Shown here: positions 4,792 through 29,377 of the stretch, piece after piece
How positions within the stretch are numbered: position 1 is the first letter of the stretch
Layout of the letters: each line of letters opens with the position of its first letter
Source: a bacterium
GTDB lineage: Bacteria > JADJOY01
Direction: 5' to 3'
DNA: 29,803 bases
Assembly (NCBI GenBank): GCA_046331705.1
Contig: JAXLQJ010000029.1
Span: 62,001-91,803 of the forward strand
The notes under the pieces: model-generated
The model's input: only the letters and a program-made list of their open reading frames with translations
Database searches by the model: none
Told to the model about the DNA's origin: nothing
Position numbers and translations under genes: made by a program

Positions 4792-5697
4792 TCACGCCAG
4801 CACGAATCGCATCAGGTCGCGCAGGCCGCGTTCCGCCGCCGCGCATCCCGGGTAGGAGAAGAACGCGTGGTCCACGCCTGCGTAGACGTGCGTCTCGACC
4901 GGCTTGCCGGCGGCGCGGCGCGCCGCGTCCATCGCACGCGTCTGCTCGACCGGCACGACCCGATCGACGTCGCCGTGGATCTGGAAAAGCGGCGCGTCGA
5001 ATTCGCACCAACTCACCGGCGAGAGCGCGCGCCATCGCTCGGGATCGTTGGTGCCCGTCACCCATCGCCGTAGCCACGGGGTGATGCCGCGCCGGAACGA
5101 CGTGAACTCGCTCACTCCGTAGATCGAGGCCACCCGAAAGGGTCGCGGGGTGGTGAGCGCGCGCCCGCCCGGCACCTGCACGAACGGATGGTCGTCGGGC
5201 CAGCCGAGCGCCAGCAGCGCGAGCGCCGCTCCCGCCGAGAGGCCCACCACGATCACCCGCGTGGGATCGGCGTCGAAGCGCGCTGCGTTCTGCGCCCAGT
5301 ACGCCATCGCCGCCTTCACGTCGCGTACCGGACGCGGCAGCACGCCGCCTTGTTGCGCCAGGCGATAATCCGCCGAGGCGACGGTGATCCCTTCGCGGAC
5401 GAGGTGCGTGGCCAGGAAGCGGCACGCGGTCATGGCGCGGTCGCCGAGGATGAACGACCCGCCGTGGACGAGCAGGCAGGAGAGCCCATCGCTGCGCTGA
5501 CCCGCGAGGCCGCGATGGACGTCCATGCGCAGCTCGAGGCGGCGGCCGCGCCCATCGCGCGTGGTGCGAAACACGAGGTCGGGGTCGCTGGCGCGCACCA
5601 GCGGCACGGCGGAGGGCTTGCGCAGCTCGCGAAACGCCCGCAGCATCGCCGCCGGTGAGGCGGTCGCGCGGCGCGGTGGAACGGACTCGGAATCCAC
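4792..5697 (-). CDS. Alpha/beta hydrolase (HSL/BD-FAE-like esterase)
   Basis: HGGSF oxyanion motif, SADYRLA, G-L-S-A-G nucleophile elbow, HGDVDRVVP (Asp), GVDHAF (His). Confidence 0.88.
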   Translation of the reverse strand: MDSESVPPRRATASPAAMLRAFRELRKPSAVPLVRASDPDLVFRTTRDGRGRRLELRMDVHRGLAGQRSDGLSCLLVHGGSFILGDRAMTACRFLATHLVREGITVASADYRLAQQGGVLPRPVRDVKAAMAYWAQNAARFDADPTRVIVVGLSAGAALALLALGWPDDHPFVQVPGGRALTTPRPFRVASIYGVSEFTSFRRGITPWLRRWVTGTNDPERWRALSPVSWCEFDAPLFQIHGDVDRVVPVEQTRAMDAARRAAGKPVETHVYAGVDHAFFSYPGCAAAERGLRDLMRFVLA

Positions 5698-5788
5698 GCA
5701 ACCCCTCCCGGCTTCGGCCGCGCGCCGTGAGGTGCGACGACGGCGCTTGCGCTTACACTACGGGAGTCACGTGGATCGAGGAAACGGC

Positions 5789-6520
5789 ATGGCATCGACG
5801 AGCACGGATCGGCTGACGCTCGAAGAAGGGGCGGCGGGGGCGGACGCAGCAGCCGCCGCCATCCCCGATCTGCCGATCGTGGTGCTCGACACGATTCCGT
5901 ACCGCCGGGCATGGGCGATCCAGCAGGGCCTCCACGCGGATCGCGTCGCCGGCAAACGCAACGACACGCTGCTCCTCCTCGAGCACCCGCCGGTCATGAC
6001 GCTGGGCCGCACCGGCGGCGCCGAGTTCCTGCGCGGCAGCGGCCCCGTGATGCACCCGGCGCTCGGCCCGATCGAGGTCGTTCCCACCGACCGCGGCGGC
6101 AAGATCACGTATCACGGGCCGGGGCAGCTGGTGGGCTACGGCATCGTGTCGCTCGCCGCGCGACGGCTCTTTCCAGCCACCTACGTTCACGCGCTCGAGA
6201 CCGTGCTCGTGACGGCGCTGGCGAGCCTCGGCCTCGAGGCGGAAGCGATCGCCGGACGCGTCGGCGTGTGGACCCGCGGCCGCAAGATCGCGTCCATCGG
6301 CGTGCGAATCACCGAGGGCGTTTCGCTCCACGGCTTCGCCCTCAACGTCACCAACGACCTGAGCCCCTTCGCGTGGATGCACCCGTGCGGCTTGCTCGAC
6401 GTCGAGATGACCAGCACGCGCAAGGAGGGAATCGACGCGAGCTTCGCCGAGGTGCGCGCGCGGGTCGCCGACGCGTGGCTCGCCACGTTCGGCGCCAGCC
6501 CCGGGGAACGCGCACCGTGA
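5789..6520 (+). CDS. lipB: Lipoyl(octanoyl) transferase
   Basis: LLLEHPPVMTLGR, TDRGGKITYHGPGQLVGY, RKIASIGV, HGFALNV, PCGL. ATG 5789 preceded by GAGG; the ORF track's 5525 start is over-extended. Confidence 0.95.
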   Translation: MASTSTDRLTLEEGAAGADAAAAAIPDLPIVVLDTIPYRRAWAIQQGLHADRVAGKRNDTLLLLEHPPVMTLGRTGGAEFLRGSGPVMHPALGPIEVVPTDRGGKITYHGPGQLVGYGIVSLAARRLFPATYVHALETVLVTALASLGLEAEAIAGRVGVWTRGRKIASIGVRITEGVSLHGFALNVTNDLSPFAWMHPCGLLDVEMTSTRKEGIDASFAEVRARVADAWLATFGASPGERAP

Positions 6521-7434
6521 CCACCGACGGCACGCTGCCGACGACGCCGCCCCGGCGAAGGCTGCCCGAGTGGGTGCGGGTGCGCCCCGCCAGCGGCCCG
6601 GATCATCACGATCTCAAGGCGCGGGTGCGCGAGCTCGGGCTGCACACGGTGTGCGAGAGCGCTTCCTGTCCCAACATCGGCGAATGCTGGAATCGCCGCA
6701 CGCTCACCGTGATGATCCTCGGCAACGTCTGCACGCGGTCGTGCGGGTTCTGCGACGTCGCGACCGGTCGCCCCGGCACGCTCGACGCCGACGAGCCGCG
6801 CCACGTCGCGGAGCTGCTCGCCGGGCTCGACCTCGCGTACGCGGTGGTCACCAGCGTGGACAGGGACGACCTCCCCGACGGCGGTGCCGCCCACTGGGCG
6901 GCCACGATCCGGGCGATCCGCGCGCTCGCGCCGCGCATGGGGATCGAGGTGCTGATCCCGGATTTCCACGCGCGCCCCGAGCCCCTCGACCAGGTGATCG
7001 ACGCGGCACCCGACGTCCTCGCTCACAACCTGGAGACCGTCGCGTCGCTGCAGCGCACGGTGCGCCCGCAGGCGAGCTACGCGCGTTCGCTGGCGGCCCT
7101 CGAGCACGCGGCGAAGCGCGGCGTGCTGACGAAATCGAGCTTGATGCTGGGCCTCGGCGAGACCCTCGACGAGGTACGTGAAGCGCTTCGCGACCTGCGC
7201 GACCACGGCTGCCGCATCCTGACGCTCGGCCAATACCTCCGCCCCTCGCTCGCGCATCTGCCCGTCGCACGGTTCTGGGAGCCCGCGGTCTTCGACGAGC
7301 TCGGCCAGGAAGCGCGGGCGATGGGCTTCGACGAGGTCGCGTCCGGCCCGCTCGTGCGCAGCTCGTACCGCGCGGACGAGCTCGCCGCGGCGCGGGTGCG
7401 GGGCGACGCAGCGGCCGAGCCAACGGCGGGCTGA
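6517..7434 (+). CDS. lipA: Lipoyl synthase (radical SAM)
   Basis: CESASCPNIGEC auxiliary-cluster motif, CTRSCGFC radical-SAM motif, TSVDRDDLPDGGA, HNLETV, GQYLRP, GPLVRSSY. GTG start overlaps the lipB stop (GTGA at 6517-6520). Confidence 0.96.
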   Translation: MTTDGTLPTTPPRRRLPEWVRVRPASGPDHHDLKARVRELGLHTVCESASCPNIGECWNRRTLTVMILGNVCTRSCGFCDVATGRPGTLDADEPRHVAELLAGLDLAYAVVTSVDRDDLPDGGAAHWAATIRAIRALAPRMGIEVLIPDFHARPEPLDQVIDAAPDVLAHNLETVASLQRTVRPQASYARSLAALEHAAKRGVLTKSSLMLGLGETLDEVREALRDLRDHGCRILTLGQYLRPSLAHLPVARFWEPAVFDELGQEARAMGFDEVASGPLVRSSYRADELAAARVRGDAAAEPTAG

Positions 7435-7521: not shown

Positions 7522-8073
7522 TCAACGGGTCGCGGGACCGGTCGAGGTCTCGGCGGTGGGCAGCTCGCGACCGCGCGCGTCCTTGGCCACCACCCGGTCG
7601 ATCGTGCCATCGACCGTGATCGCCGCCAGCGTCCACGGGTTGGTGAGCACCTGGATGGTCATCGCGCCCGGCTCGGGCTTGGTCTCGCGGAAGGTCACCT
7701 CGAGGGTGGTTCCGCGCCGCGCCGCCGACACGATCTCGACTCCGAACCCGCCCGTCAGGCGCTCGCCGAGAGCGACGCCCACGACGACCTCGCGCGAGAA
7801 GTCAATCGCGGGCTGCGCCGGCTCGGGAGGCAGCGCGAACCCGGGAACGCGCGCGCTCATGGCGTTCGCGAGCTCTTCCGCGGAGCGCGCCAGCCACACG
7901 TGCGGCGCGCCGCCGGAGCCAGCACCGCCGCCCGAGGCGATGGTGCGCATCTCCAACGCCGACCCGCTACCCCGGCCGCCCATCGCCACGACCAGTGGCG
8001 CCAAGAGTGCCAGCACCGCGAGCCGCGGCGCTCGGACGACCTCGTTTCGCAGTGCGTTCATCCGTGTCGTCAT
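7522..8073 (-). CDS. Exported protein with PrcB C-terminal-like domain (start uncertain: 8061, 8073 or 8085)
   Basis: Signal-like segment RLAVLALLAPLVVAMG, then PAIDFSREVVVGVALGERLTGGFGVEI...PGAMTIQVLTNPW, matching the PrcB_C pattern (G.R.TGG..V.I ... Q..T.P). The ORF track's longer version runs through tRNA-Ala. Confidence 0.75.
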   Translation of the reverse strand: MTTRMNALRNEVVRAPRLAVLALLAPLVVAMGGRGSGSALEMRTIASGGGAGSGGAPHVWLARSAEELANAMSARVPGFALPPEPAQPAIDFSREVVVGVALGERLTGGFGVEIVSAARRGTTLEVTFRETKPEPGAMTIQVLTNPWTLAAITVDGTIDRVVAKDARGRELPTAETSTGPATR

Positions 8074-8111
8074 CCGCGCACGCATTCGGGCGAGCGCGGG
8101 TTGCGACGAAG

Positions 8112-8187
8112 TGGTGGAGCCGAAGGGAGTCGAACCCTCTACCTCCTGACTGCCAGTCAGGCGCTCTCCCAGTTGAGCTACGGCCCC
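8112..8187 (-). tRNA. tRNA-Ala (anticodon GGC)
   Basis: Reverse complement GGGGCCGTAGCTCAACTGGGAGAGCGCCTGACTGGCAGTCAGGAGGTAGAGGGTTCGACTCCCTTCGGCTCCACCA: 76 nt, full cloverleaf, G3:U70 pair, encoded CCA. Confidence 0.97.
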
Positions 8188-8226
8188 GGATGGTGCGTCG
8201 GACGTCCATTTCCGAGCGGGCGGCGA

Positions 8227-8256
8227 AACATAGCGAAGCGCCGCGCGGACGGGCAA
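8227..8256 (-). promoter_or_regulatory. Putative sigma70-type promoter for tRNA-Ala
   Basis: Minus strand TTGCCC (8256-8251), 18 nt spacer, TATGTT (8232-8227), 40 nt upstream of the tRNA. Confidence 0.35.
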
Positions 8257-8416
8257 GCCCATGCGCGTCGCTCGATCACCGACCGGCCGCAGACCCGGCG
8301 CGACCGAGCGCGCGCGCACGCCGTGCGGCGCAGCCGGAAACCCACCGGGCTGTGCTAGGGTACCCACGGCCTCGTAATCTTGCGTGTTTCCCGACCATCG
8401 TCTCGAGCCTCCCGGC

Positions 8417-8809
8417 ATGTCGCGTGCGCTGCTCCGCGTCTTGGTCGCGGATGACGAGGAGACCATTCGGGAGCTCATGCGCTTCATCCTTCACGACCAG
8501 CAGTGCATCGTGACCATGGCCACCAACGGTCGCGAAGCCACCCAGAAGCTCGACGAGCAGCCATTCGATCTGGTGTTCATGGACATCATGATGCCGGTGC
8601 AAAACGGCGTCGAAGCGTTCCGCACCATCCACGCGCGCCATCCGGACGTCCCGGTGGTGATGGTCTCGGGGTTCGGCAAGGAAGCGCAGATCCTGCGTGA
8701 CCAAGCGCTCAAGAACGGCGCCTACAAGTTCATCCCCAAGCCGTTCTCGATCGCGGACATCCGGCGCGTCGTCGACGAAGTGCGCAGCGAGCGCCTGCCC
8801 GAGGAGTGA
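8417..8809 (+). CDS. Single-domain response regulator (CheY-like receiver)
   Basis: VLVADDE acidic pocket, DLVFMDIMMP phospho-acceptor Asp, VVMVSG, FIPKPF; no output domain. Confidence 0.92.
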   Translation: MSRALLRVLVADDEETIRELMRFILHDQQCIVTMATNGREATQKLDEQPFDLVFMDIMMPVQNGVEAFRTIHARHPDVPVVMVSGFGKEAQILRDQALKNGAYKFIPKPFSIADIRRVVDEVRSERLPEE

Positions 8810-11073: not shown

Positions 11074-12881
11074 AGAGCTCTCCGCGTCCTTTCGTCGCTC
11101 GGTTCGTCCTCGGACTCGCCGTCGTGTGGGCCGCGAGCACGATCGCGACCCGTGCGTCCGCGGCGCCGCCGCGCGGCCCCACGATCCTGGTGCTGCCCAT
11201 GGCGGCGGACGACTCCATTCCCGCGGCGAGCGTGGCGCGGCTGCGCAGCGCGCTCGAAGCCGGGCTCAAGAGCGCAGGAGCGCGCGCGGTCCCCGCTGCC
11301 GCGAGCGCACCGGCGAAGCTCGCCTCGCGCGAGGCGTTGCGCGGCGCTGCTGCGACTGCCGGCGCGAGCGCCGTCCTGACGAGCGAGCTCACGCGCCAGG
11401 GCGCGGGCGTTCATCTCGCGCTCGCGATCCACGACGGCACGAGTGGCACCGCGGTGTGGCGAAGCGCGCTCGACCAGCCCGACGTCGAAGGCGTCCGCGC
11501 GTTCCTGAGCGAGGTGCTGGGCGAAGCCGTCAGCGCCGCGCGCTCCACCGGCGAATCGGCGCGGCCCAGCGCGATCGGCGCAGCCGGCGCAGTCGGCGCC
11601 GAGCCACCCGCCGCAGCCGAGCCAGCTCGTGCAGCCGAGCCCGCTCGTGCAGCCGCTCCCACGAGCGCCGCCGCTGCCGCGGCAGGCTCGACCTTGCCGC
11701 CGCCCGTGCTCACGGTCGAGCCCGACGGCGGCGCAGCCGTGGTGCTCAACGCCACGCCGCGGATCGAGCCGCCCGTCGCGCTCGCGGCCGCCGCCGCGCC
11801 CGCGCTACCGTCGGTCCAGGCGTACCCATTCGAGGCGGACATTCGCGACTTCGACGTCTGCCGCTTCGGCGCGACGGCGCCCATCGCGTTCGCCGTCGTC
11901 GAAGCCGAGGGCGTACGCCTCTGGATCGCGGACGGCACGCGCCCGCCGACAGCCGCGGCCCACGTGGACACGCGCGCGCTCGAGACGTTCGTCGCCGCCG
12001 ATTGCGCGGACGTCGACGGTGACGGCATCGACGAGCTCGCGATCACCGGACGGCGCAACGGCGGCTTCCGCTCGCGGGTCTTCACCGTGACCGAGGGCGG
12101 CCAGCGCGTCGCGCCGATCGGCGAGGAAGTCGCCTTCGCCATTCGCGCCGCCCCGGTCGGCGGCGGCAAACGCAGCCTGTTCGCGCAAGACTTCCCCATC
12201 CCGGGACGGCTCTACGGCCCGATTCGCACGGTGGAAGTGCGCGGCGGCCAAGTCCTCCTGGGACGCGAGCTCGAGCTGGTGGCGGATGCCAACGTCGGCG
12301 CGCTCGCGCTGGGGCTGCCCGGACCGCAGGGCACCGACGCCGCGCTCACCATCGACTCCGACGCGCGCTTGCGCCTGATCGCCAGCGGGCGCAGCGCATG
12401 GACCGGACCCGCGCACTACGGCGGCTACGACGTTTCCTTCGAGACCGCCGAGCGTCTGGTCAGCACCACCGGCTCGCTGCCGCGCGTCTATTTGCGCGAC
12501 CGCATCGAGGTGGTCGGCCAAGGGTCGTCACCGCTGATCTTCGTCACCGAGATCGAAGCGCCGCTCGGAAACGTGCTGCCGAATCTCAACGTGGGTCGCG
12601 ACGTCACCGTCGCGGCGATGCGCTGGAACGGCCAAGGCTTCGCGCCCATCCCCGTGCCCTTCGGATACAGCGCCGCGAGCGTCGGCGAGGGCGCGCTCAG
12701 AGACATTCGCGTCACCGACGTCACCGGCGACCGCGTCCCCGATCTGGTGCTCGCCGTCGTCGACTCCGAGGGCGGCTTGCTCGTTCCTCCAAGGCCGCGA
12801 GCCGACTATGCTCGTGTTTCCGGGCACGCCGTTGACGGACTCGCCGCAATCCGCACAATAAGCCGTCTCCGGGCGGGGTGA
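11070..12881 (+). CDS. Exported protein with Ala/Pro-rich linker and FG-GAP/VCBS-type Ca-binding repeats; true 3' end probably earlier (about 12835-12860)
   Basis: ATGA overlap with the HD gene stop; signal peptide (ARFVLGLAVVWAAS..ASA); motifs ADVDGDGIDELAIT and TDVTGDRVPDLVLA. As read, the stop codon lies inside the tRNA-Met 5' end. Confidence 0.7.
   Translation: MKSSPRPFVARFVLGLAVVWAASTIATRASAAPPRGPTILVLPMAADDSIPAASVARLRSALEAGLKSAGARAVPAAASAPAKLASREALRGAAATAGASAVLTSELTRQGAGVHLALAIHDGTSGTAVWRSALDQPDVEGVRAFLSEVLGEAVSAARSTGESARPSAIGAAGAVGAEPPAAAEPARAAEPARAAAPTSAAAAAAGSTLPPPVLTVEPDGGAAVVLNATPRIEPPVALAAAAAPALPSVQAYPFEADIRDFDVCRFGATAPIAFAVVEAEGVRLWIADGTRPPTAAAHVDTRALETFVAADCADVDGDGIDELAITGRRNGGFRSRVFTVTEGGQRVAPIGEEVAFAIRAAPVGGGKRSLFAQDFPIPGRLYGPIRTVEVRGGQVLLGRELELVADANVGALALGLPGPQGTDAALTIDSDARLRLIASGRSAWTGPAHYGGYDVSFETAERLVSTTGSLPRVYLRDRIEVVGQGSSPLIFVTEIEAPLGNVLPNLNVGRDVTVAAMRWNGQGFAPIPVPFGYSAASVGEGALRDIRVTDVTGDRVPDLVLAVVDSEGGLLVPPRPRADYARVSGHAVDGLAAIRTISRLRAG
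11613..11655 (+). repeat. 18-bp in-frame tandem repeat (about 2.4 copies) encoding AAEPAR
   Basis: GCAGCCGAGCCAGCTCGT / GCAGCCGAGCCCGCTCGT / GCAGCCG. Confidence 0.8.
12832..12859 (+). promoter_or_regulatory. Putative sigma70-type promoter for tRNA-Met
   Basis: TTGACG (12832-12837), 16 nt spacer, CACAAT (12854-12859), 12 nt before the tRNA. Confidence 0.4.
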
Positions 12882-12948
12882 AGCCAGGGTGGTTAGAGCG
12901 ACGGTCTCATAAGCCGTAGGTCGAGGGTTCGAGTCCCTCCCGCCACCA
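12872..12948 (+). tRNA. tRNA with CAT anticodon (most likely elongator tRNA-Met); D-stem and acceptor stem irregular as written
   Basis: Anticodon arm ACGGT-CT-CAT-AA-GCCGT, T arm GAGGG-TTCGAGT-CCCTC, 3' ACCA. 5' GGCGGGG has only CCGCC opposite (2 nt short), and the D-stem 5' strand reads GAAGCCAG instead of AGCTCAG. Confidence 0.85.
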
Positions 12949-14049: not shown

Positions 14050-15619
14050 GCTGCCTCGGTTCATGAGCTCGGGCTCGATAGTGGAGGTTCGTCACCCGCC
14101 GGCGGAGCCGGTCCGATGCTCGGTGTTCTGCACGCGCGGCCTGCGCGGCCTCGCTCTGAGCGGGCTCGCTCGATCTCGTGCCGTAGCCTCTGCGCGTTCG
14201 CGCTCGGCGCGCTCTGCTGCAACGGCGCTTGTTCGGCAGCCTGCTTGCCGCCGCTTGGCGTGCTTCCTCGTCTTCGCGGCGCTTTTTCTTCTGGGTGAAA
14301 GCCGCCTTGCGCGAAGGCGCGCGATTCCTCCGGTCGATTTCCTCGGTGGCTGAGGCAAGCTCACGCGCTCCTTCAAGAGCGCAACGGCTCTTCTCCCATG
14401 CGCCCCTTCACGAAAGGCGCTGGCGCGGGCGGGCGTAGTCCTCGAGCTTGCGTTGCTGTTTCTCCTCGGCGGCCTCGCTCGCCTTGCGCGCGAGCACGGG
14501 CCGCGGCGCGTGCGGCTCCTTCGGCGCGCCTCTTCGGCGGCTTCGCGAAGCTGTTTCGCGTGAGTTCCGCTTGGCTTCGATCGCCGCAATCTCGGCGTTG
14601 ATCTCGCTCGGATCGTCCACCCGCGAACGTGCCTTCCTTAGCGTCACGATCGCCGCGTCCCAGCTCATCTCGAACGAACCGCTGCGCTCCTCCGCGAGAA
14701 GCTGATCGGTTCGTCGCCGTTCGTCCGCCCGCGCGACGACGTCAGGGTGGGGTGCGGGCACTAGGGTGACTATTGCCGTCGACGTAGCGTCCAGCTCGAT
14801 CGACTCGCCGGGTCTAGGCGTGTCGGTGATCCGTGGCTCCGACTCCGAGCCGGCGCGTCAGAGCCGCGCGCGCAGATTCCCCGCGCTGGAATCGACCGCC
14901 TCGGGTTCAGCGCACCGTGCAGCCTGCTCAGCGGCATGGTCGACCACGCGCTCGCCCCTCGAGATGTCCTCGATCCTCGGGGCGCGATGCAACTCGGTGC
15001 CAGCTAGCTCATGGTCTTCCGCTACCGGCGAATCGGACGCCGGCTGGTCCTGAAGTGCAACGGGAGCATCCCGCGGCTCATCGGAAGTGTGCGCGCACTC
15101 GATGCCGCCGAGTCACGGCTCGATTCGACCACCTGCTGCGACACTTCCGCTGCGAGCTTAAGCTCTTCGACTAGAGGTTGAGATCCCGATGGAAGCTGTT
15201 GCCCGGACCGAACATCTGTTCCCTTCTTTGTTAGCCAGCCCGAGTTCCGGCGGCAGCTCGTGCGGCTTTGGCATCCTTGCCTTCCCGACAAGTACCGGGA
15301 AGACAGGGATTGGCTGATTAAGGGCTGCGGCAACCCTCCAGCGCGCACATGGTCACCTGGTACATCGGCGCGGCGCTGCCCCTGGTAGTCCCTGTCCTTC
15401 TCGCTGCAGCTCAGCCACTGATCGCCAATAACCACAATCATTGCGTCAGAGTGACGAATCCGCTCCGCACAGAAATCCGGGAAATCTACCCCCGGCTTTA
15501 CGTTATCGTACATCGTAGAAGATATTCGTCCTGCCGAATTCGCTCGCGAGTCGATCGTAGATACGACCTGTGATGTCCTCGCCGTCCTCGCGGCGATAAC
15601 AGATGAAGATCTTCGGCAT
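14050..15619 (-). pseudogene. TIR (TIR_2-type) domain protein with acidic linker and charged coiled-coil; multiple frameshifts
   Basis: Joining frames from ATG 15619: MPKIFICYRREDGEDITGRIYDRLASEFGRTNIFYDV/DNVKPGVDFPDFCAERIRHSDAMIVVIGDQWL...GQRRADVPGDHVR/LE/VAAALNQPIPVFPVLVGKARMPKPHELPPEL/GWLTKK..DVRSG/NSFHRD/..LVEEL, a complete bacterial TIR fold including the expected catalytic Glu (VRLEV). 3' end approximate. Confidence 0.8.
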
Positions 15620-15892
15620 GGCTGTGGCGCGATCTGGACGGTGCGGAACTCGATCTTGCTACGGCCACGGCACGGGCATCAAGGCGCACTACGGCGACGT
15701 TTCGATGGAGTATTCCCGCGGTCGGAGCACCTTCTCCACTCCGCGAGGATCGGCCGTGCTCCAACCGTGTGCCGATACACAACCCTCAGAGGCTGCGGGT
15801 GGATCCGAGCGCACCCCGCCGGCCGAGGTGACGGCTTCCGGCGCGGCTGCGATGGCTTCGGCTGACACTCCTGCGGGAGAGTGCTTCGACCG

Positions 15893-15970
15893 ACCCCGCA
15901 TGATGTCGGGCGGCGCGAGCCAGCAGCGGATGCCGAAGCGCTCGATCCCACGACGGACCGCCAGCAGATC
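15893..15970 (-). pseudogene. TIR-domain remnant (alphaA-betaB-BB loop segment)
   Basis: DLLAVRRGIERFGIRCWLAPPDIMRG resembles the common bacterial TIR segment AVC..LE..GIRCWIAPRDI..G; no upstream FISY strand and no recognisable continuation. Confidence 0.55.
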
Positions 15971-16018
15971 GCAAGCCCGCCGCAAGCACTCGCCGCGCGC
16001 GCCCGCCGATGACCGATC

Positions 16019-17446
16019 TCAGCGCGACGCCGCCTCCAGCTCGGCGATGACGCGCGCGAGCCAGGGCGTTCGTTCGCGGCGCTTGGTGCGTGCGTCCCGA
16101 ATCAACCGCAGGTTGCGAGCCGTGGTCTCGGCTTCCCACGGGGCGCGCAACGAAGCGAGTGCGTCGCCGAGGTGACGATCCGCGGCCGGTGCGTCGCTCG
16201 CGAGCACCGCGAGCTCGAGCATCGTGGCGTGGTCCCAGTAATCGGGTGAACCGCTCGCCAAGCGCTGCTCGGCGGAGAAGCGAACCACCGGCAGCAAGCG
16301 ATCGCGCTCGGCCTTGGCGGCATCGTCGCCCTTCATCTCGAGCAGCGTGACGGCGTTGATGCCGGGATACGCATCGCGCCAGTCGGCCTGAAAGCCGCGC
16401 CGGTAAGCGCCGATGGCACGGTCGAGGTGGGACGCCGCGAGCGCCTCGCCCTTCTTCCCTCTGGCGCACGCCTCCGTCCAAAGATCCTTGTGGATCCTGC
16501 CGATGAGCCCGCAGGTCTCGGAGCTGGGTCCTTGCTCGGACTCGACTTCCTTGAGCACGCTGAGCGCCCGCTCGCGGAGCGTTCGCGCGAGCACGCTCTC
16601 CGAATCCTCCTTGAACAAGCGTCCGGCTTCGCGATTGAGCGCGAGCCCGAGCTGCTCGCGCACCATCACCTGGCGCTGGAGAGCGACGGGCATGCGAGCG
16701 TAGAGATCGATCATCGCTCGCCAGGCGCTCAGCGCTCGGTACGAGAGCATGAGCTCCACGATCACGCCCGCCTCGTCGACGTCCAGCTCGTCGAGCTCCT
16801 TCTCGACGGCGCCGAGGGCTTCGAGTCCCGCTTCGCCGCGCCGCAAACGAGCCTCCGCCATGCGCTCTTGCAGCTCGCGATGCTCGGTGAGCTCGTCGCG
16901 AAACACGTCGGTCTTGAGCCGCGCGAGCTTGGGCGGCTTCCACTCGCCGATGAGCTGGAAGATCGGGCTGTCGACGTGGGCCTTGCTGAACGCGAGCTTT
17001 CGCAAGCGCTTCAGGCTCGCACCGAGCGATTCGCGCAGCGCCTTGGCCTCGCGTGCGGCGAACCGGTTGTTGGCTCCGAGGTCGTAGCCCACCGCCTCCA
17101 GGAACGAGACGTCGAACGGAATGTGGTGGTGCTTGGCGAAGATCGCCTGTGTCGTGCTGGGCCGCGCCGTGTGGCGTACCCCCAGCTCGTAAAACACGTT
17201 CGCGTTGGCGCTGGTCAGATCGGCCACCGCGTACTCGCACAGCATCAGCGCCGCGAACATCTTGCGGTGGATGATGCCGCCGCCGGCGGCGTGGTCCGAG
17301 CGCAGCGGGATCAGCCCCGCATCCTCGATGGCGGGAGCGATCGCTCGCCGGTACACCTCGTCGAAATCGATGTCGGCGCGACCCGTGGGATCGGGCTTCT
17401 TGCCGAACGGCATCAGCACGAAGCAGAGCGGTTTCGGTTGAGACAT
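16019..17446 (-). CDS. Deoxyribohydrolase-like (DRHyd/NDT fold) domain + TPR-S repeats (DUF4071 / MAP3K TRAF-binding family)
   Basis: CFVLMPFGKK...DFDEVY...IAPAI...RSD...IIH..MF..L..CEYAVADLTSANANVFYELGVRH; C-terminal LLSYR-like LMLSYRALSAW, EQLGLALNR, SSETCGLIGRIHKDLW, YRRGF..D..DAYPGINAVTLL, DYWDHATMLEL, WEAETTARNLRLI. ATG 17446 preceded by AAAGGA. Confidence 0.88.
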   Translation of the reverse strand: MSQPKPLCFVLMPFGKKPDPTGRADIDFDEVYRRAIAPAIEDAGLIPLRSDHAAGGGIIHRKMFAALMLCEYAVADLTSANANVFYELGVRHTARPSTTQAIFAKHHHIPFDVSFLEAVGYDLGANNRFAAREAKALRESLGASLKRLRKLAFSKAHVDSPIFQLIGEWKPPKLARLKTDVFRDELTEHRELQERMAEARLRRGEAGLEALGAVEKELDELDVDEAGVIVELMLSYRALSAWRAMIDLYARMPVALQRQVMVREQLGLALNREAGRLFKEDSESVLARTLRERALSVLKEVESEQGPSSETCGLIGRIHKDLWTEACARGKKGEALAASHLDRAIGAYRRGFQADWRDAYPGINAVTLLEMKGDDAAKAERDRLLPVVRFSAEQRLASGSPDYWDHATMLELAVLASDAPAADRHLGDALASLRAPWEAETTARNLRLIRDARTKRRERTPWLARVIAELEAASR

Positions 17447-17614
17447 GGAGCGTCCTTTCGGTGCGGTCCCGAGGCGACGACGAGCGCGCGAGCGCACTGC
17501 GCGGCCGAGCATGCGAGGCGTGCTTGCGAGTATCCAGCGCTGAGCTTGCTCGGAATCGAACGTGGCTTGGTATCGAATCCCTGACCGGTGCCATTCGTGA
17601 CTCGCGCCGATTGC

Positions 17615-20110
17615 CTAACGATCGCGTCTGCGAATGGCATAGCCGGCCGCAAGCAGCACGGCGGGCCAGTTCGCCACAGCTTGGCGATCTTGCTCCTTGA
17701 TGCGCTCCGGAACCCGATCCCACGGCACGAGGTATGGCGATTCCTTGCGCGCGACGTCGCGCTCCTCCGCTGGCTTCCAGCCCTGGAGCAGCCGTTCGGC
17801 ATTCCAGCGTCCGTGCTCACGCTCGGCGAGGCGCTCGAGCTCGCTCAGCTCGAACCGGATGGGCTGATCCATCGGCCCGCCGCGCTCCACCACGTACCCC
17901 TCGGCGCTGATCGCTCGCTCGATGAAGGCGACTTGCGCTCGATTCGAGCGCTTGAGCCCCTCATCGAGCTGGCTCCACAGAAGAAGCGATCGATCTTGGC
18001 CACCCAGACCGGTGAGTCGCGAGGCGCGGTAGGCATCGTGCACGTGCCGTCCGCCCACCTCGAGCGCGGCGTCGTCGAGCGCGGTCTTCGCGTCGCTCAA
18101 CAGCGCGTCAAAGGTGGCCTCGTCGTCGGGCACGGGCATCACATTGGCCACGTCCGACCAGTCGCGATCCTTGAGCGTGGCCTCTGCGGCATCCTTGCTA
18201 TTCGCGACGAGCGCCACGCAGGCCCCCAGCGCCGCGGCGATTCGATATTCGAGCGCCGAGAGGTCGCCGCCACCCACACCCACGAGCTTCACGTCCTGTG
18301 CCGCCACACCCGACGTGAGCAGATCATTCCAGTACCGCAGCACCTCGCGCACGCTGAAGTCGCGCGCGCCCGGGGTGCGCCGGATCTCGGAGTAGCGCAA
18401 ATCGAGGACCGCGCCGCGAGGCAGCCGCGCCGGGACGTAGCCGATCGTTCGGATTCGTCCGCGCGAGCGCGCGCCGATGCGCGCCGCCAGCTCGCAGATG
18501 CCGGTGCGTGTCCCTCCCGAGACGATCGTGCCGCGAAAGTCGCGCAGCGCTGCGCGCAGCCGCCGGTCCACCTGCGCGCGCCGGCGTCCCCAGCCGCGCG
18601 ATGTGTCGCCAGCCAAGATCAGCACGTTGCCGAAGGCGTCGTCCTGCGACTCACGCGAGCGCGCCTCCTCGACCCGTCGGGCCAGATCCAGCAGCGCCAC
18701 GACCTCGTCGAGACCGCAGATCGCAGAACGGGCACCGCTCAGGCGATGCAGCTCGCTCGCCTCCTGGCACAGCAGCCGCGCTCCTTCGCCGCGCCAGTCG
18801 CGGCGCGTCACCTCGAGCGCCTTGCAGTAGCTCTTCAGCGCCTCGTCCGGCGCGCCCGCGAAGAGTTGCAGCCTCCCAGCCGCGTAGAACGCGAGCGGCC
18901 AATCGAGGTGCGCATCCGCGCGATCGCGGCAGCGCTCGATCGCCTGACGGATCAGCGGTCGCGCCGATCCGAGCGCCGTGACCGCGCCGCCCGCGTGGCT
19001 CTCCACCTCGCAGCTCAGGAGCGCGCACAGGTGATACGGATTGGTGGGCGCTCGCTCGAACGCTCGCGCGCGATGGCTACGCTCGCGAGCAGCATCGACA
19101 CCCGCCCAGCTCTCGGCGACGAGCGCGAGCGCCTCGTCATCCGACGGGTCCGACTCGATCGCACGCGCGAGCGACTGCCGCGCCGCGGCCAACGCCGCGC
19201 GGTCGCTCGCCGGCGCCAGGCGCAACCGGGCCCGCCCCAGCTCCCGGTGCACGCGACCGTTTCGCGAGCTGACGAACGCACCGAGGGCGTCGATCACCTG
19301 TTTCCAGGCGCCAACCGCCGCCGCAGCCTGGGCGAGCTTGAGCGCCGCGCCTTCGTCCCGAGGCAGCGCCTCCGTGACGTGCGCCAGCGTTTCGAGCTCG
19401 TTCTCGGCCCGCTTTCGATCCACCCACACGCCGTGGTGATCCCGGTAGGCGTCCACCCCCTGCGCCAGCTCGGCGAACGCGCGGTCTCCTTCCTCGAGCA
19501 TCGCCGCCAAGCGCGCCGCCAACCGATGCCAGCGCGGCGGCACCTCGAAGCCCGGCTTGTAGAGCCGGTCGTGCGCGACGTCACCCCAGACGTGCTGCAG
19601 GAACGTCCGCACCTGGATCTCGAGCTTGAGCCCGTCCACCGCGCGGCGCGTCTTCGCAGGCAGGCGGCGCACGAAGGGCGAGCTCGGCCGCACGGCGATC
19701 CGATAGTGGACGCACGAATAGCCGAACTCCGACGTGCCGAGGCGTTCCTGCACGTTCTCGCGATCCGCGGGGCTCAGACCGAAATGCGCCTCGACCCACG
19801 CGCAGAGCCGCTCGACCTCCGGCACCGTGTGCGTGATCACCCGCCCCCCGCACAGGTCGAAGAGCTCGTTCACCGGGTTTGCCAGATCCGGGTATTTCCG
19901 CACCGCTTTCTCGGCGAAGCTCGCCACCGACTTGGCGCGCGCCTGCACCATCGCCAGCGGCACGCACTCCGCGACGCCGCGCCGAAGCGCCGCTTCCACG
20001 GCCGTCGCAAGCAGGCGGTAGCGCGGCTCGATCGCCTGGTACGCCCTCACCTGCGCCGCATGCCACTCCCGCTTCTCGGCGGCATCCCGCTCCCGCTCCT
20101 CGTCCGTCAC
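17615..20110 (-). CDS. Multidomain protein: RelA/SpoT-type alarmone synthetase + TPR-like repeats + SLOG domain + two RyR domains
   Basis: Synthetase: RAKSVASFAEKAVRK, DLCGGRVI, FGYSCVHY, EIQVRTFLQHVWGDVAHDRLYK. SLOG: VLILAG...TIVSGGTRTGICELA...TIGYVP...VGVGGGDLSALEYRIA. RyR1: RHVHDAY...LLWSQLDEGLKRSNR...EGY. RyR2: LAEREHGRWNAERLLQGW....RD..RKESPYLVPWDRVPERIKEQDR...GYAI. GTG 20110 preceded by GGAGGGGG. Confidence 0.88.
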   Translation of the reverse strand: MTDEERERDAAEKREWHAAQVRAYQAIEPRYRLLATAVEAALRRGVAECVPLAMVQARAKSVASFAEKAVRKYPDLANPVNELFDLCGGRVITHTVPEVERLCAWVEAHFGLSPADRENVQERLGTSEFGYSCVHYRIAVRPSSPFVRRLPAKTRRAVDGLKLEIQVRTFLQHVWGDVAHDRLYKPGFEVPPRWHRLAARLAAMLEEGDRAFAELAQGVDAYRDHHGVWVDRKRAENELETLAHVTEALPRDEGAALKLAQAAAAVGAWKQVIDALGAFVSSRNGRVHRELGRARLRLAPASDRAALAAARQSLARAIESDPSDDEALALVAESWAGVDAARERSHRARAFERAPTNPYHLCALLSCEVESHAGGAVTALGSARPLIRQAIERCRDRADAHLDWPLAFYAAGRLQLFAGAPDEALKSYCKALEVTRRDWRGEGARLLCQEASELHRLSGARSAICGLDEVVALLDLARRVEEARSRESQDDAFGNVLILAGDTSRGWGRRRAQVDRRLRAALRDFRGTIVSGGTRTGICELAARIGARSRGRIRTIGYVPARLPRGAVLDLRYSEIRRTPGARDFSVREVLRYWNDLLTSGVAAQDVKLVGVGGGDLSALEYRIAAALGACVALVANSKDAAEATLKDRDWSDVANVMPVPDDEATFDALLSDAKTALDDAALEVGGRHVHDAYRASRLTGLGGQDRSLLLWSQLDEGLKRSNRAQVAFIERAISAEGYVVERGGPMDQPIRFELSELERLAEREHGRWNAERLLQGWKPAEERDVARKESPYLVPWDRVPERIKEQDRQAVANWPAVLLAAGYAIRRRDR

Positions 20111-20231
20111 GGCCCCCTCCCGCAATCGGCTTTCCCCTTCGCACACCGCTGCACGCTATCATCTTCGAACCCGCGCGGCGTGAAGGCGCAGCAGCGCAAG
20201 CCTAGGTGAATTCGTCTAGCTTCCCTGGCCC

Positions 20232-20294
20232 ATGCCCTCGCCGACCTACGACGTCTTTCTCAGCTACGCGTCGGCGGATCTCCCGCTCGCCGAC
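20232..20294 (+). pseudogene. Truncated TIR gene (first beta strand and helix start only)
   Basis: MPSPTYDVFLSYASADLPLAD is a typical TIR N-terminus with high-GC codons; similarity stops abruptly at about 20294 where composition changes. Confidence 0.65.
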
Positions 20295-20714
20295 AACAAC
20301 ACCCACAGAGACATCCGGTGGAGCCGCCCACAGCGACAGATGCTCGCGTTCCGTCTCTATGGCCGCGGCCGCGCGCGCTCTCGCACCACCAGTGAATACT
20401 TGCTGGCTGCTCTCATGACCCCAACCTTTCAGGATCCGGCGCCGCCGAAGAACCCGAGCGACTCCAACGCCAGAGGTCTCCGCCGTCGCCTGCTCCACAG
20501 TCGAATCTCTCGACCTATCGGATCGAGTCTCGTCACCACGTCCAGCACCAGCTCACTGTCCAACACCACCTCGCGGATACCCTCCGAGTGATCCACGACG
20601 CATTCGAAAGCATGTACCACCCCAGTACACCACGCCCGATTCTTACGAAGGAGCCGAAGCCGCCGACGCTGGCCACCGAGACGTACGAGAGGATCGAACA
20701 CATACACGAAATAC

Positions 20715-21220
20715 TCACAACAGATCCGACCCGAGTTGCTTGATGCCGAGTGAAAATCGTTCGTTTTCGCGGTCGATACCGAGGACCACCGCCTCAACTA
20801 GCTGGCCCTCTCGGTAGATCTCGCTTGGGTGACCGAAGCACCTATTGTGCATAAGATCGGAGATGTGAACCAACCCGTCGATACCTTCATCCAGGCCAAT
20901 GAAAACGCCAAAGTCGGTGACCCTCTTGACCTTGCCGCGAATGACCTCGCCGATCGCATAAGCGCGCTTCGACGATTCCCACGGATTCGGCATCATCTGC
21001 TTGAGCCCCAGTGAAATCCGCTGGTTCGCCAAGTCAACGTCGAGGACCTGAGCTTCGATCTCTTGCCCGACCTCGACGAATGTCGACGGGTGCCTCACCT
21101 TCCTCGCCCACGACATATCAGACACGTGAATTAGCCCTTCGACGTCCTTCTCAAGCTGGACGAACGCGCCGTAGTCAGAGAGGCTGACCAGTACCTCTCA
21201 CTCGCGCACCTGGCGCCAAT
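20715..21220 (-). pseudogene. Two tandem S1 RNA-binding domains closely resembling internal domains (about D4-D5) of ribosomal protein S1; probably the C-terminus of the upstream frameshifted gene
   Basis: PGARVRGT/VSLSDYGAFVQLEKDVEGLIHVSDMSWARKVRHPS...VLDVDLANQRISLGLKQMMPNPW...GEVIRGKVKRVTDFGVFIGLDEGIDGLVHISDL...VEAVVLGIDRENERFSLGIKQL; one frameshift near 21190. Confidence 0.85.
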
Positions 21221-26860: not shown

Positions 26861-29377
26861 TCACGGCGATCCGAGCTCGCTCGGGTCGTAGGCCCACACG
26901 GCGACCCCCTTGCGGCTGCCGTCGCGAGTGGCGAGGAGCGGGCTCCGGGGGTGAAAGGCGAGCCCGCGAGGAAGCGGATCGTCCGTTCCTTCGTCGATCC
27001 GCACCATCGCTTCCCAACTGTCCGTCCGATACAGCACCACACCGCCGCGGATGACCTTCGCGGCGACGATCCGTTCGTCGTGGGAGACCGCGAGATCGAC
27101 CGCGTCGCCGGCACCACAGCCGAGCATCACGCGCTCGTCGCGGGCCTCGACGTCGAGCACGCGCAGGGTGCTCCGTCCCCCGCTCACGACGATCGCGCCC
27201 TTGCGTTGCAGCCAGCCGAGTACCTTCACCGGGGCCCCGGTCGTCGCGAAGCGGCGGATCGCGGCTTCGCCCGTCGACGCGCGCGCCGCCTCGATCACGA
27301 TGGCGCGATCGTCGCCGCCGGTCGCCAGCCAGGTGCCGTCGCGACTCCACGCGAGCGACAACACGGCACCCCGGTGGAGCTCGAGCGTGACGCGTTCCTC
27401 GCCGGACTCGCGCTGCGTACGAAGCTCCAGGTGGCCGTTGCGCAGTCCGAGCGCGAGGGTCCTTCCGTCCGGCGACCACGCGGCGCACAGCACCACGTCC
27501 GCCGTGCTCGCGAGCCAGGCCGGCGGCAACCCCGCCTCCGGCTGCCAGAGTCGGAGCGAGCCGTCCGCCGTGCTCACCACGACTTGGCGCCCGTCGGGCG
27601 ACCACGCCACCGCGCGGACGGCGCCACCCGCTGACACGTGCACCGCGGTGCAGCTCCGCCGGGCCGGATCCCAGATCCGAACCGAGCCGTCGCGCGACGC
27701 CGAGAGGATCCGCGATCCCGTGGGTGACCACGCGATCGCCGAGATCAGCTCGGGATGCGCCCCCAGCGTGGTCTCGATCCTGAGCCCGAGCGGCACCGGC
27801 GCAGCCCGTGACTCGGGCGCGGGGGTCCGGGGGAGAACGATCGTGCGCCACGTCGCCGCCTCGGCGAAGGGATCGCTCAGGTCGAGGTACGAGCACGAAT
27901 CCTTCCACACGCGCTGCCAGTCGCACGACGCCGCCGTGCCTGAGTTAGCGAGGCGCTCGACCCATTCCCCACGCAGTCGCGCGCGGCCGTGGCGCGGCGG
28001 CTCGCGCACGGCGCGCGCCAGCGCCTCCGCGGGCACGATGCGGTGATCGAGGACGCCAGCGGCATCGAGCGCCGCAAAGATCCCGCCCTCGCCGACCTCC
28101 GCGAACTTGGTGTCGAGCTCGAATAGCTCGTCGCGCAGCCGCAGAAACGCCGGGAACGAATCGATGCTCGCCCCGCGCGCGGCCAGCGTTCGCTCACCGT
28201 TCCGCCGCCAGTCACGCAACGACTCCGTGGAATGCTCGAACGGATCGACCCGACTCGCCGGCGAGATTCCGCTCGCGAGACGAGCCCGTGCAAACCCGGC
28301 GGCGACCTCGTTCCAGATCGGCAGCACGTCGCGCGCGAATCCAGCGCTGCGCGCCCGCTCTTGGTAGAGCCGGTCCTTGATCGCCCAGTCGAGCGTCGTC
28401 GCGGCGCTGAGCGGCGAGTCCGAGAGCCGCTCGAGCTGCTGCCGCCAGTGACGCAGCACCTCGTCCGCCCACGCGGGGAGCAGCCCCCGTCGCGCGGCGG
28501 ATTCCGCCGTCTCCAGGTAATGCCGCTGGATCTCGAGCGCCGTGAGCCTCCGCCCGTCCACGAGGTCGACGCGCGTCGTGAGCGAGGGATCGCACGCGAT
28601 GGCGTGCATCGCGCGCAGCGGTGTCGCGAGCGCGACCGCCGATCCCGGGCTGGAGCCGGCCTCGACCATGGCAAGCACCAGCGCCGTCGTGCCGATCTTC
28701 AGATACGCGGCGACGTGCGATTGGAGCGATTCGCCGCAGATCAAGTGCAGCCGATGGAAACCGGGTGCCGCGAGGGTTTCGTCCTTGGTGTGCAGGATGC
28801 CGCGGTTGCCGGTCGAGTCGCAGGAGGTCTCGTTGACCAGGAACGAGGCCCGCGGTGAGAGCATGAAGACGATTCCTGGCGAGGACGGCTCGAATCCGCC
28901 GCTGCCGGAGAACACGATCCGGCTCACGAGATGCGGGAGGAGCTGCTCCGGCAGCGCCCGCGGATGGACCCGATGCAAGTAAGACTCGTGGCAACCCCAC
29001 GAGGCCCCGCTGCCGCTGTAGTCGACGTTGCCGCGGAAGAGCCGCACGCTCGCGAGCGCCGGGACCTGCGCGCGGATTCGTCGCAGCAGGCGCTCGAGCA
29101 CGAGGTCGCCGGCGCCCACGAATTGCACGCATTCGGCCGGGTCCGAGCACTCGGGTGTGGCGAACTCGGGATGAAAGCCGTGATCCACGTAGAACCGCGC
29201 ACCCGAGCTCAGCCACACACCGCCGGCGTCCGCCGAGCCCGGCAACGTCGGCAGCTCTGCGGACGCCGCGCGTGTGAGCAGCTCCACGATCTGCCGACGC
29301 GAGACCGGCGATCCCTGCGCCGGCATGGGGGCGAGCGCGTACTCGGTCTCGATCCCCATCAGCGAGGCGTGGGTCAT
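26861..29377 (-). CDS. PafA/Dop-family (Pup-ligase-like carboxylate-amine ligase) domain fused to a 7-blade WD40 propeller
   Basis: MGIETEY, WLSSGARFYVDHGFHPEFATPEC, LFRGNVD..G..SWGCHESYL, LVSRIVFSGSG, LSPRA, RGILHTKDE, HRLHLICGESL, LKIGTTALVLAMVEAG, LTALEIQRHYLE, LDWAIK, PPRHGRARLRGEWV, CDW. Then seven WD40-type blades (AWSPTG..IWD, AWSPDG..LWQ, AWSPDG, AWSRDG, GWLQRK, AVSHDE, AFHPRS..VW) in one open frame. Start overlaps the upstream stop (ATGA). Confidence 0.9.
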   Translation of the reverse strand: MTHASLMGIETEYALAPMPAQGSPVSRRQIVELLTRAASAELPTLPGSADAGGVWLSSGARFYVDHGFHPEFATPECSDPAECVQFVGAGDLVLERLLRRIRAQVPALASVRLFRGNVDYSGSGASWGCHESYLHRVHPRALPEQLLPHLVSRIVFSGSGGFEPSSPGIVFMLSPRASFLVNETSCDSTGNRGILHTKDETLAAPGFHRLHLICGESLQSHVAAYLKIGTTALVLAMVEAGSSPGSAVALATPLRAMHAIACDPSLTTRVDLVDGRRLTALEIQRHYLETAESAARRGLLPAWADEVLRHWRQQLERLSDSPLSAATTLDWAIKDRLYQERARSAGFARDVLPIWNEVAAGFARARLASGISPASRVDPFEHSTESLRDWRRNGERTLAARGASIDSFPAFLRLRDELFELDTKFAEVGEGGIFAALDAAGVLDHRIVPAEALARAVREPPRHGRARLRGEWVERLANSGTAASCDWQRVWKDSCSYLDLSDPFAEAATWRTIVLPRTPAPESRAAPVPLGLRIETTLGAHPELISAIAWSPTGSRILSASRDGSVRIWDPARRSCTAVHVSAGGAVRAVAWSPDGRQVVVSTADGSLRLWQPEAGLPPAWLASTADVVLCAAWSPDGRTLALGLRNGHLELRTQRESGEERVTLELHRGAVLSLAWSRDGTWLATGGDDRAIVIEAARASTGEAAIRRFATTGAPVKVLGWLQRKGAIVVSGGRSTLRVLDVEARDERVMLGCGAGDAVDLAVSHDERIVAAKVIRGGVVLYRTDSWEAMVRIDEGTDDPLPRGLAFHPRSPLLATRDGSRKGVAVWAYDPSELGSP

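Follow-up and report, generated by a model that had tools for sequence, protein, structure and literature searches.

Type I Thoeris systems pair a TIR protein (ThsB) with ThsA, in which a SIR2 domain is joined to a SLOG domain, and the TIR protein produces a cADPR-isomer signal by which the effector is activated. In the characterized case the SLOG domain is a sensor (PMC9503650). The same paper describes TIR and DRHyd domains as able to act as NAD+-depleting effectors. Small alarmone synthetases that act as toxins (toxSAS) are known from modules that carry hydrolase antitoxins (PMC7229694), and that paper contains no occurrence of TPR, RyR or NUDIX. Here we describe a locus from a 29,803-nucleotide stretch of bacterial DNA (contig JAXLQJ010000029.1, positions 62,001 to 91,803; hereafter the window) in which one gene, called gene A, joins a RelA/SpoT synthetase to TPR-like, SLOG and RyR modules in a single protein. 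The gene lies beside gene B, which codes for a DRHyd-like and TPR-S protein, and a TIR-domain gene, both of them candidates for nucleotide cleavage. A preliminary description of this DNA, made from the sequence alone, knew of no experimental account of such a combination. Our literature search likewise turned up no paper in which a SLOG or RyR domain is joined to RelA/SpoT, but the supplementary tables of RelA/SpoT homologue (RSH) subfamilies could list the family under another name.

The principal features of the locus are the following.

17615-20146, minus strand: gene A, 843 aa, with a RelQ-like synthetase, TPR-S-like helices, a TRPM-type SLOG domain and a RyR repeat; intact
17447-17614, minus strand: spacer between genes A and B, 168 nt
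16019-17446, minus strand: gene B, 475 aa from M23, with a DRHyd-like domain followed by TPR-S / MAP3K_TRAF_bd (DUF4071); intact
14858-15619, minus strand: TIR-domain gene, frameshifted in the assembly and open once it is corrected with the indels found in a sister-strain contig

The three genes share one orientation, as had been stated in the preliminary description. The order of modules proposed there for gene A is also borne out by Pfam, an alignment of homologues, hhalign and structure models, with the correction that the gene ends at 20146, 36 nt past the limit of 20110 first given. The predicted modules of gene A are as follows.

19493-20050, minus strand: residues ~33-218, RelA/SpoT (small alarmone synthetase) catalytic domain, from Pfam, invariant motifs and RelQ/RelP matches
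18662-19429, minus strand: residues ~240-495, TPR region made up entirely of helices and homologous to TPR-S in gene B, from hhalign, a weak Pfam match and the model
18122-18634, minus strand: residues ~505-675, SLOG domain of the LSDAT/TRPM type, from Pfam matches of homologues, hhalign and a domain model
17618-18079, minus strand: residues ~690-843, RyR repeat domain, from Pfam, profile and fold matches

Pfam recognizes both end modules of the protein directly: RelA_SpoT covers residues 70-198 (E 1.4e-11), and RyR covers residues 771-839 (E 8.3e-14). In an alignment of gene A with 15 homologues, all synthetase motifs are invariant (R70/K72, D97..G100.R102, Y143/H147, E176-IQVRT and H192..Y196), and both the SLOG-type GGT..G and GG......E motifs and the RyR core (E777 H778 R780 W781) are invariant or nearly so. 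The catalytic and ligand-pocket motifs are intact. When the family profile is compared with the PDB, it finds RelQ/RelP (E ~1e-15) and the repeats of RyR1-3 (E ~1e-35), as well as bacterial chains titled 'putative ryanodine receptor'. The full-length AlphaFold model (predicted local distance difference test score, pLDDT, 83.6) gives a consistent picture, in that RelQ/RelP are the closest folds for the synthetase (TMt 0.71-0.73) and CapRel is also matched. The model also matches entries for RyR3 Repeat12 whose titles name bound ATP, ADP or AMP-PCP.

The SLOG domain was not detected by a Pfam scan of gene A itself. However, PF18171 (LSDAT_prok) is recorded in 7 of 22 homologues, and residues 507-673 align by hhalign with an LSDAT_prok domain that belongs to a SLOG-SLATT protein from a metagenome (probability 90%, E 1.5e-6). 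A model of the domain built from 46 sequences reaches a pLDDT of 90.8. Its best PDB matches (E 4e-7 and up, TMq 0.55-0.68) are the MHR1/2 regions of TRPM4 and TRPM2, and some of the TRPM2 entries have ADP-ribose bound. On these profile and model comparisons, the gene A effector carries a predicted SLOG sensor domain of the LSDAT/TRPM type. The helical region between the synthetase and this domain appears to be related to part of gene B, since residues 256-447 align by hhalign with the TPR-S region of that protein (probability 67%, E 5e-5, 189 columns). Pfam gives only a weak TPR-S match here (E 0.65), PF20308 is present in 3 of 22 homologues, and the model is composed of helices.

We infer that gene A would serve as effector in a conflict or stress system based on nucleotide signalling, and it is probably a signal-triggered growth-arrest switch. 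The RelQ-like pyrophosphokinase head would be kept inactive by the TPR-S-like helices, the TRPM-type SLOG domain and the RyR repeat until a small nucleotide ligand at the SLOG domain activated the protein. The active enzyme would then use ATP as its pyrophosphate donor. The acceptor would be a guanine or adenine nucleotide, giving (p)ppGpp or (p)ppApp, or the 3' ends of tRNAs, and growth would stop. The ligand would most likely be an NAD+-derived molecule of the ADP-ribose type made by a TIR-type enzyme. At the present locus its source could be the neighbouring 252-aa TIR protein, with gene B's DRHyd domain as a possible second source, and at other loci a small NUDIX hydrolase might clear either the signal or the product. 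We tentatively favour the core of this proposal, in which a nucleotide signal from the TIR protein, perhaps also from the DRHyd domain, binds the SLOG domain and turns the synthetase on, and would put it a little short of an even chance.

The company kept by relatives of gene A bears on this proposal. A single scan of species-representative genomes returned 488 relatives, whose record titles include Chloroflexota, Planctomycetota, Verrucomicrobiota, Acidobacteriota, Gemmatimonadota, Actinomycetes, Bacteroidota, Methanomicrobia, Bathyarchaeia and a Hodarchaeota metagenome-assembled genome. The best 80 loci were kept, and the A open reading frame (ORF) was identified in 76 of them. Recurrent neighbour clusters were named by Pfam from one representative each, and a further Pfam scan covered 230 neighbour ORFs (one per cluster, >=110 aa, <=3 kb from A), to the exclusion of shorter, farther and redundant ORFs. 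The following neighbours recur.

39 of 76 A loci: small NUDIX protein (~143 aa)
19 of 76 A loci: TrkA_N-RyR protein
16 of 76 A loci: WD40 protein
16 of 76 A loci: STAND-RyR protein
15 of 76 A loci: DUF4062-NACHT-TPR protein

The small MutT-like NUDIX protein is the most frequent partner found for the family. In 33 of the 39 loci its distance from A is at most 500 bp, and it mostly overlaps A or is within 100 bp (many gaps fall between -58 and +24 nt). It is encoded on the same strand in 38 of the 39. The two proteins are fused in 3 of 22 relatives, and the NUDIX-box glutamates are invariant in the partner. This tight and often overlapping bicistronic arrangement is also what would be expected if A were a toxic synthetase of the toxSAS type and the NUDIX protein its enzymatic antitoxin, hydrolyzing the product as small alarmone hydrolases do. 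The kinship of the NUDIX protein to MutT/NudI hydrolases of nucleoside triphosphates (NTPs) would suit such a role, as does the precedent of hydrolase antitoxins noted above. In the window, the antitoxin would have to have been lost, leaving A as a silenced or tolerated orphan. No NUDIX-like sequence was found in the window (best tblastn E 0.005 over 27 residues), and the NUDIX genes of the host genome are all on other contigs and of a generic type. However, gene A keeps every invariant residue without such a partner, as would sooner be expected of an enzyme under auto-inhibition than of a toxin that is constitutively active. The NUDIX gene is also missing from 37 of the 76 loci, its position is not fixed (upstream of A in 23 loci and downstream in 16), and a simple toxin would have no need of ~600 residues of sensor domains. 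We consider the toxin-antitoxin explanation distinctly improbable.

TIR-type genes form a second group of neighbours. Within 3 kb of A, TIR_2 is present in 19 of 76 loci, DUF4062 in 18 and either of the two in 35, and five of the TIR genes are on the same strand at a distance of no more than 110 nt. By comparison, TIR_2 is rare genome-wide (four matches in the 8.2-Mb host genome, which are intact TIR_2 proteins located elsewhere in it). The co-occurrence of TIR genes with the A family that was anticipated in the preliminary description is thereby seen in about a quarter of the loci. Its broader idea, that a protein joining SLOG to RelA/SpoT is tied to TIR-type signalling, remains plausible as regards gating by a TIR-type signal, although the conserved cassette with DUF4071 that formed part of it fails for reasons given below. 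Together, an intact enzyme that looks auto-inhibited, a SLOG domain of the type to which ADP-ribose binds in TRPM2, and the presence of TIR-type and NUDIX partners in the family support a signal-gated synthetase, a Thoeris pattern with a new effector. This comparative support for a Thoeris-like logic is partial. STAND, WD40, CHAT and PIN-type conflict genes also recur in A loci.

Proteins with RyR domains are found in 31 of 76 A loci, either fused to TrkA_N, fused to STAND NTPases or as small RyR-only proteins. The RyR repeat may serve as a shared adaptor or as a common ligand sensor. These partners also permit the signal to be read in the opposite direction. Gene A would then make an alarmone second messenger when its TPR-S, SLOG or RyR module senses an infection cue, and the neighbouring TIR, DRHyd and RyR-domain proteins would be the effectors. 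RyR repeats can bind adenine nucleotides, as PDB entries show, and the NAD+-depleting capacity of TIR and DRHyd domains would provide an output. However, gene A encodes the only RyR-domain protein of the host genome, no alarmone receptor is evident in gene B or the TIR protein, and the sensor role of SLOG in the characterized Thoeris case points the other way. This reversed arrangement is very unlikely in our estimation.

The distribution of gene A among relatives of the host is narrow. It was not found in four genomes of the same genus and one of the same family (74-100% completeness). This absence from relatives, together with its scatter over many bacterial and archaeal phyla, indicates that A is an accessory gene that has moved horizontally. 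A phage origin of the full-length protein was considered and rejected, because all 27 relatives on viral contigs cover the synthetase part only (query residues 19-352, with none extending beyond residue 352).

Gene B lies within an ORF spanning 16019-17512, but the alignment places its true start at M23, corresponding to position 17446. The TPR part of its DRHyd-TPR architecture, also proposed in the preliminary description, is upheld by Pfam matches to MAP3K_TRAF_bd/DUF4071 (PF13281, E 6.6e-37, 127.8 bits) and TPR-S (PF20308, E 1.6e-23, 83.6 bits), both above the curated cut-offs. The two parts are located as follows.

~17003-17434, minus strand: N-terminal DRHyd-like domain of gene B, with an invariant YELG Glu
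~16073-16843, minus strand: TPR-S / MAP3K_TRAF_bd (DUF4071) region of gene B, from Pfam

Similarity to DNPH1/Rcl is weak over the N-terminal ~150 residues (E 0.06-0.08), as is that of the remainder to the TPR structure of ASK1 (E 0.04). The 16 aligned homologues are 54-62% identical to B, and several are named to different phyla by their sources. The YELG Glu (E109) and its motif are invariant in all 17 aligned sequences. Members of the DRHyd superfamily have a Rossmannoid domain in which the Glu of a YELG-type motif is catalytic. Because this Glu is kept in all 17 aligned members, the DRHyd-like domain of B is probably catalytic.

The neighbourhoods of B relatives were taken from metagenome contigs, since the phylum has only six species-level genomes in the collection. 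The search gave 543 relatives. Only the best 80 loci, a good number of which are short, were retained, and Pfam was run on 80 immediate neighbours (one per cluster, gap <400 nt, >=100 aa). The B family is mostly solitary and its neighbours are variable, with the largest neighbour cluster reaching no more than 7 of the 80 loci. A loose theme can be discerned, consisting of TPR-S fused to patatin, trypsin or endonuclease domains, TIR proteins, caspase-TIR proteins and CHAT. By a hand tally, a TPR-S-effector neighbour is present in ~13 of 80 loci and a TIR neighbour in ~8, and the remainder have ordinary genes. Gene A, in which a synthetase is followed by a TPR-S-like region, has the form of these TPR-S-effector fusions.

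As a separate observation, one B locus (L100) carries an LSDAT_prok SLOG-SLATT two-transmembrane effector (3778-5982, plus strand) directly upstream of the B relative (6001-7344). It is the only B locus of the 80 with a SLOG neighbour, and the SLOG subtype is the same as that of gene A.

Several features favour a link between A and B in the window. The genes are on the same strand, no terminator-like site was found in the 168-nt spacer between them, and they share a module of the TPR-S type. A GGA lies in the spacer a few bases ahead of the start of gene B, and B is probably co-transcribed with A. A promoter scan of positions 14700-20500 found no sigma-70-like site, a result that is uninformative for an unstudied phylum. 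The predicted complex of A (residues 230-690) and B (residues 23-497) received a score of 0.00 in a run without controls, which counts neither for nor against binding. Among the scanned neighbours in A loci, TPR-S is present only once (L064). A tblastn search with B matches only two A loci (L065 and L067), where the match is limited to the N-terminal domain of B and lies in a protein two genes upstream of A.

The preliminary description had expected the three genes to co-occur in other genomes, and this expectation failed. DUF4071 is present in 0 of 76 A loci among the scanned neighbours, and an A relative is present in 0 of 80 B loci (tblastn E < 1e-5). Because this reciprocal co-occurrence is nil, the A-B pairing is, as judged by these searches, a lineage-specific arrangement, and its functional meaning is putative.

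These counts bring forward another explanation, in which A, B and the TIR gene merely share a variable island. In that case, B, with or without the TIR gene, would be a self-contained DRHyd-TPR-S module, and A would be an independent, sensor-fused synthetase that responds in stress physiology to an ordinary metabolite, such as ATP, ADP-ribose or NAD+ status. Besides the reciprocal absence, the explanation is consistent with the mostly solitary habit of the B family, with the 15 of 76 A loci that lack a recurrent partner, and with the location of both genes in a low-GC stretch that adjoins a tRNA gene. The fold matches to ATP-listing TRPM4 and to ATP/ADP-bound RyR3 Repeat12 would suit an ordinary metabolite. 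However, mere co-location does not account for the TIR or DUF4062 genes around A in 35 of 76 loci given the rarity of TIR_2 genome-wide, nor for the recurrence of STAND, WD40, CHAT and PIN-type conflict genes. The patchy distribution of A and its absence from congeners are unlike those of a housekeeping regulator, and the spacer without a terminator also speaks against unrelated neighbours. We regard this explanation as somewhat unlikely.

The TIR gene requires comment, as the claim that it exists is true in part. Two TIR_2 pieces are present in different frames, one at 15506-15619 (profile positions 1-23, E 0.052) and one at 15325-15516 (profile positions 33-64, E 0.0083), and PADLOC gives a weak ThsB match (E 0.0018). 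These pieces do not form an open gene in the present assembly, but they do in the frame of a sister strain. To assess the break, the window was compared with contigs of four sequencing runs from four studies (X1, X5, X6 and X7). Two of these contigs, X1 (1681 nt, covering 14867-16546) and X7 (280 nt), differ from the window by small indels. The X1 contig shows ten indel events and 22 substitutions in 1.68 kb, with the indels mostly outside homopolymers. The indel sites are 15091, 15179, 15205, 15229, 15239/40, 15336, 15340, 15509 and 15716, and X7 has six in common. When the X1 indels are applied, the TIR frame is open for 265 codons and gives 252 aa from the first Met. The repaired protein retains the catalytic Glu of the conserved TIR motif, and its best local matches are TIR_2 proteins confirmed by Pfam (E 1.5e-21 to L148:1-774). 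By comparison, genes A and B align without gaps to sister-strain contigs that differ by 1-2%.

The tRNA-Met gene at the left edge of the same low-GC stretch is broken in a similar manner.

12877-12948, plus strand: tRNA-Met (CAT) gene, broken by a 2-nt gap as assembled

As assembled, this gene is not found by ARAGORN and scores only 32.6 bits with Rfam. It is complete by ARAGORN once CC is restored after position 12938, and this CC is carried by the X1, X5 and X6 contigs. The break suggests consensus errors in the surrounding assembly. Natural pseudogene decay of the 13-16 kb and 20.2-24.1 kb regions was considered and is not claimed, because consensus error is no less likely in view of the broken tRNA and of the indel pattern relative to contigs from other runs. 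For the TIR gene, we lean toward assembly consensus errors over natural decay in the strain. Whichever is the cause, an intact TIR-B-A array is present in the population, with one contig spanning TIR to B (X1) and another spanning B to A (X7).

Two further observations concern these contigs. The stretch is present in activated-sludge and wastewater runs of 11 studies, and none of the listed runs that carry it is recorded as RNA. In addition, at a 50-nt piece of the A-B spacer and the 5' end of B (17462-17513), the contigs of three of the four runs (X1, X5 and X6) end on both sides, and only the X7 contig bridges it.

A gene upstream of A that the preliminary description had assigned to DUF4062 could not be sustained. 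The ORF in question (20232-20591) runs on the opposite strand, and Pfam returns nothing for it even at E <= 10. TIR-like sequence is confined to its first ~16 residues, and no other frame continues the domain.

A number of findings weigh against the signal-gated reading of the locus and account for the caution with which it is put forward. First, neither TIR nor DUF4062 lies within 3 kb of A in 41 of the 76 loci, and 15 of the 76 lack all of the recurrent partners, so a dedicated signal generator is not obligatory. Second, the partner NUDIX is closest to NTP hydrolases of the MutT/NudI type (E 6e-35 and 1.6e-22) and then to ADP-ribose pyrophosphatases (E ~1e-15). This similarity suits a role in hydrolyzing the product no less than a role in breaking down an ADP-ribose signal. 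Third, the SLOG fold also matches TRPM4, in entries that list ATP and decavanadate, so that the ligand could be an ordinary nucleotide. Fourth, as reported above, no DUF4071 gene was found among the scanned neighbours in A loci and no A relative in B loci, and the family of gene B is far larger than that of A (more than 6653 clusters versus 22 with the same tool; 6653 of the 8000 scored are at E <= 0.001) and without a conserved neighbour. Fifth, the TIR gene that would supply the signal is frame-broken in the present assembly. Finally, the A loci come from the best 80 of 488 relatives, ORF calling in them was crude (longest non-overlapping, >=70 aa, followed by clustering), and only one representative of each neighbour cluster was scanned.

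The remainder of the window provides the setting. Its G+C content is 70%, so third-position G+C (GC3) was used to choose genes. The left third holds housekeeping genes, namely AspRS, HisRS, ComEC, LplA/B, tRNA-Ala and a response regulator, and an ORF containing PrcB_C is located at 7522-8487. A stretch of lower G+C (0.56-0.68) extends from ~12.9 to 24.15 kb. Within it, genes A and B are the only two long ORFs with host-like codon bias (GC3 0.84-0.85), and both are on the minus strand. The flanking parts at 12.9-16.0 kb and 20.2-24.15 kb have the same lower G+C (0.56-0.68) and are without intact ORFs recognizable by Pfam, and frame errors may hide real genes there. Sister-strain contigs show many small gaps relative to 12.8-13.3, 13.45-13.79 and 14.49-14.77 kb. 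A 136-aa ORF at 20715-21125 (minus strand) carries ~1.5 S1 RNA-binding repeats (E 1.2e-25) and resembles a piece of an S1-type ribosomal protein gene left behind in the low-GC stretch. Farther to the right, at 26861-29509 (minus strand), an 882-aa protein has a Pup-ligase domain of the PafA/Dop type (E 4.9e-90) fused to a WD40 propeller, which is an unusual fusion in a little-sampled phylum.

A bolder version of the signal-gated reading can also be drawn, in which A is a prokaryotic enzyme with 'TRPM2 logic'. An ADP-ribose-type product of NAD+ cleavage by a TIR or DRHyd enzyme would bind the TRPM-type SLOG domain and trigger an alarmone burst or tRNA pyrophosphorylation, and the NUDIX protein would be a built-in timer. 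The RyR repeat would be a second sensor of adenine nucleotides or a homotypic adaptor to RyR-tagged partners. In the present lineage, the role of the NUDIX/TIR set as signal-handling partner would have passed to the DRHyd-TPR-S protein, which would dock by way of the TPR-S module that it shares with A. We think this version unlikely, but if it holds, NAD+-derived immune signalling would be wired directly to the chemistry of the stringent response.

Should A prove to be an alarmone synthetase gated by a ligand, it would represent a new effector class for TIR/SLOG second-messenger immunity and the first direct link of NAD+-derived signals to (p)ppGpp or (p)ppApp chemistry. It would also offer a testable bacterial function for the TRPM-type SLOG domain and the RyR repeat, which are modules known mainly from animal calcium channels. 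The same would hold for the DRHyd-TPR-S (DUF4071) family, which is very widespread and unstudied and has a relative in the regulatory N-terminal region of human ASK1. Because members of the A family occur widely, in both bacteria and archaea, any result would generalize.

Among described systems, the locus resembles type I Thoeris in placing a TIR gene, frame-broken in the present assembly, beside a SLOG-bearing effector and in the diversity of the TIR partners, which vary across A loci. However, the head of A is a RelA/SpoT synthetase rather than SIR2, and its SLOG domain is of the LSDAT/TRPM type. Gene A also adds TPR-S, RyR and, in its family, a NUDIX partner, and TIR genes occur in only about a quarter of A loci. 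PADLOC run on A reports only PDC-S33 (residues 44-187) and no match to ThsA.

With RelQ/RelP and the toxSAS enzymes CapRel, FaRel and FaRel2, gene A shares the catalytic fold and intact motifs, and most of its family shares with toxSAS a tight bicistronic arrangement with a small hydrolase. RelQ and RelP are single-domain proteins (~200-250 aa), whereas the 843-aa product of A carries additional TPR-S, SLOG and RyR modules. The partner in the A family is a NUDIX protein and not a small alarmone hydrolase (SAH), Panacea or zinc-finger antitoxin, and none is encoded in the window.

Gene B resembles the N-terminal region of ASK1 (MAP3K5) and the bacterial DUF4071 proteins annotated with a 'TRAFs-binding domain', through its MAP3K_TRAF_bd and TPR-S matches and its weak similarity to the ASK1 TPR structure. 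It differs in having no kinase domain and in a DRHyd domain that keeps the YELG Glu.

The last comparison is with the TRPM2 channel, or chanzyme, in which an MHR1/2 SLOG region is combined with a NUDIX domain (NUDT9-H). Gene A has no channel, its predicted output is that of a nucleotide pyrophosphokinase, and the NUDIX of its family is MutT/NudI-like rather than NUDT9-like and has no copy in the window. Nevertheless, the SLOG fold is the same, with TRPM proteins as its best structural matches, and like TRPM2 the A family recurrently pairs SLOG with a NUDIX hydrolase, in some relatives within a single protein.

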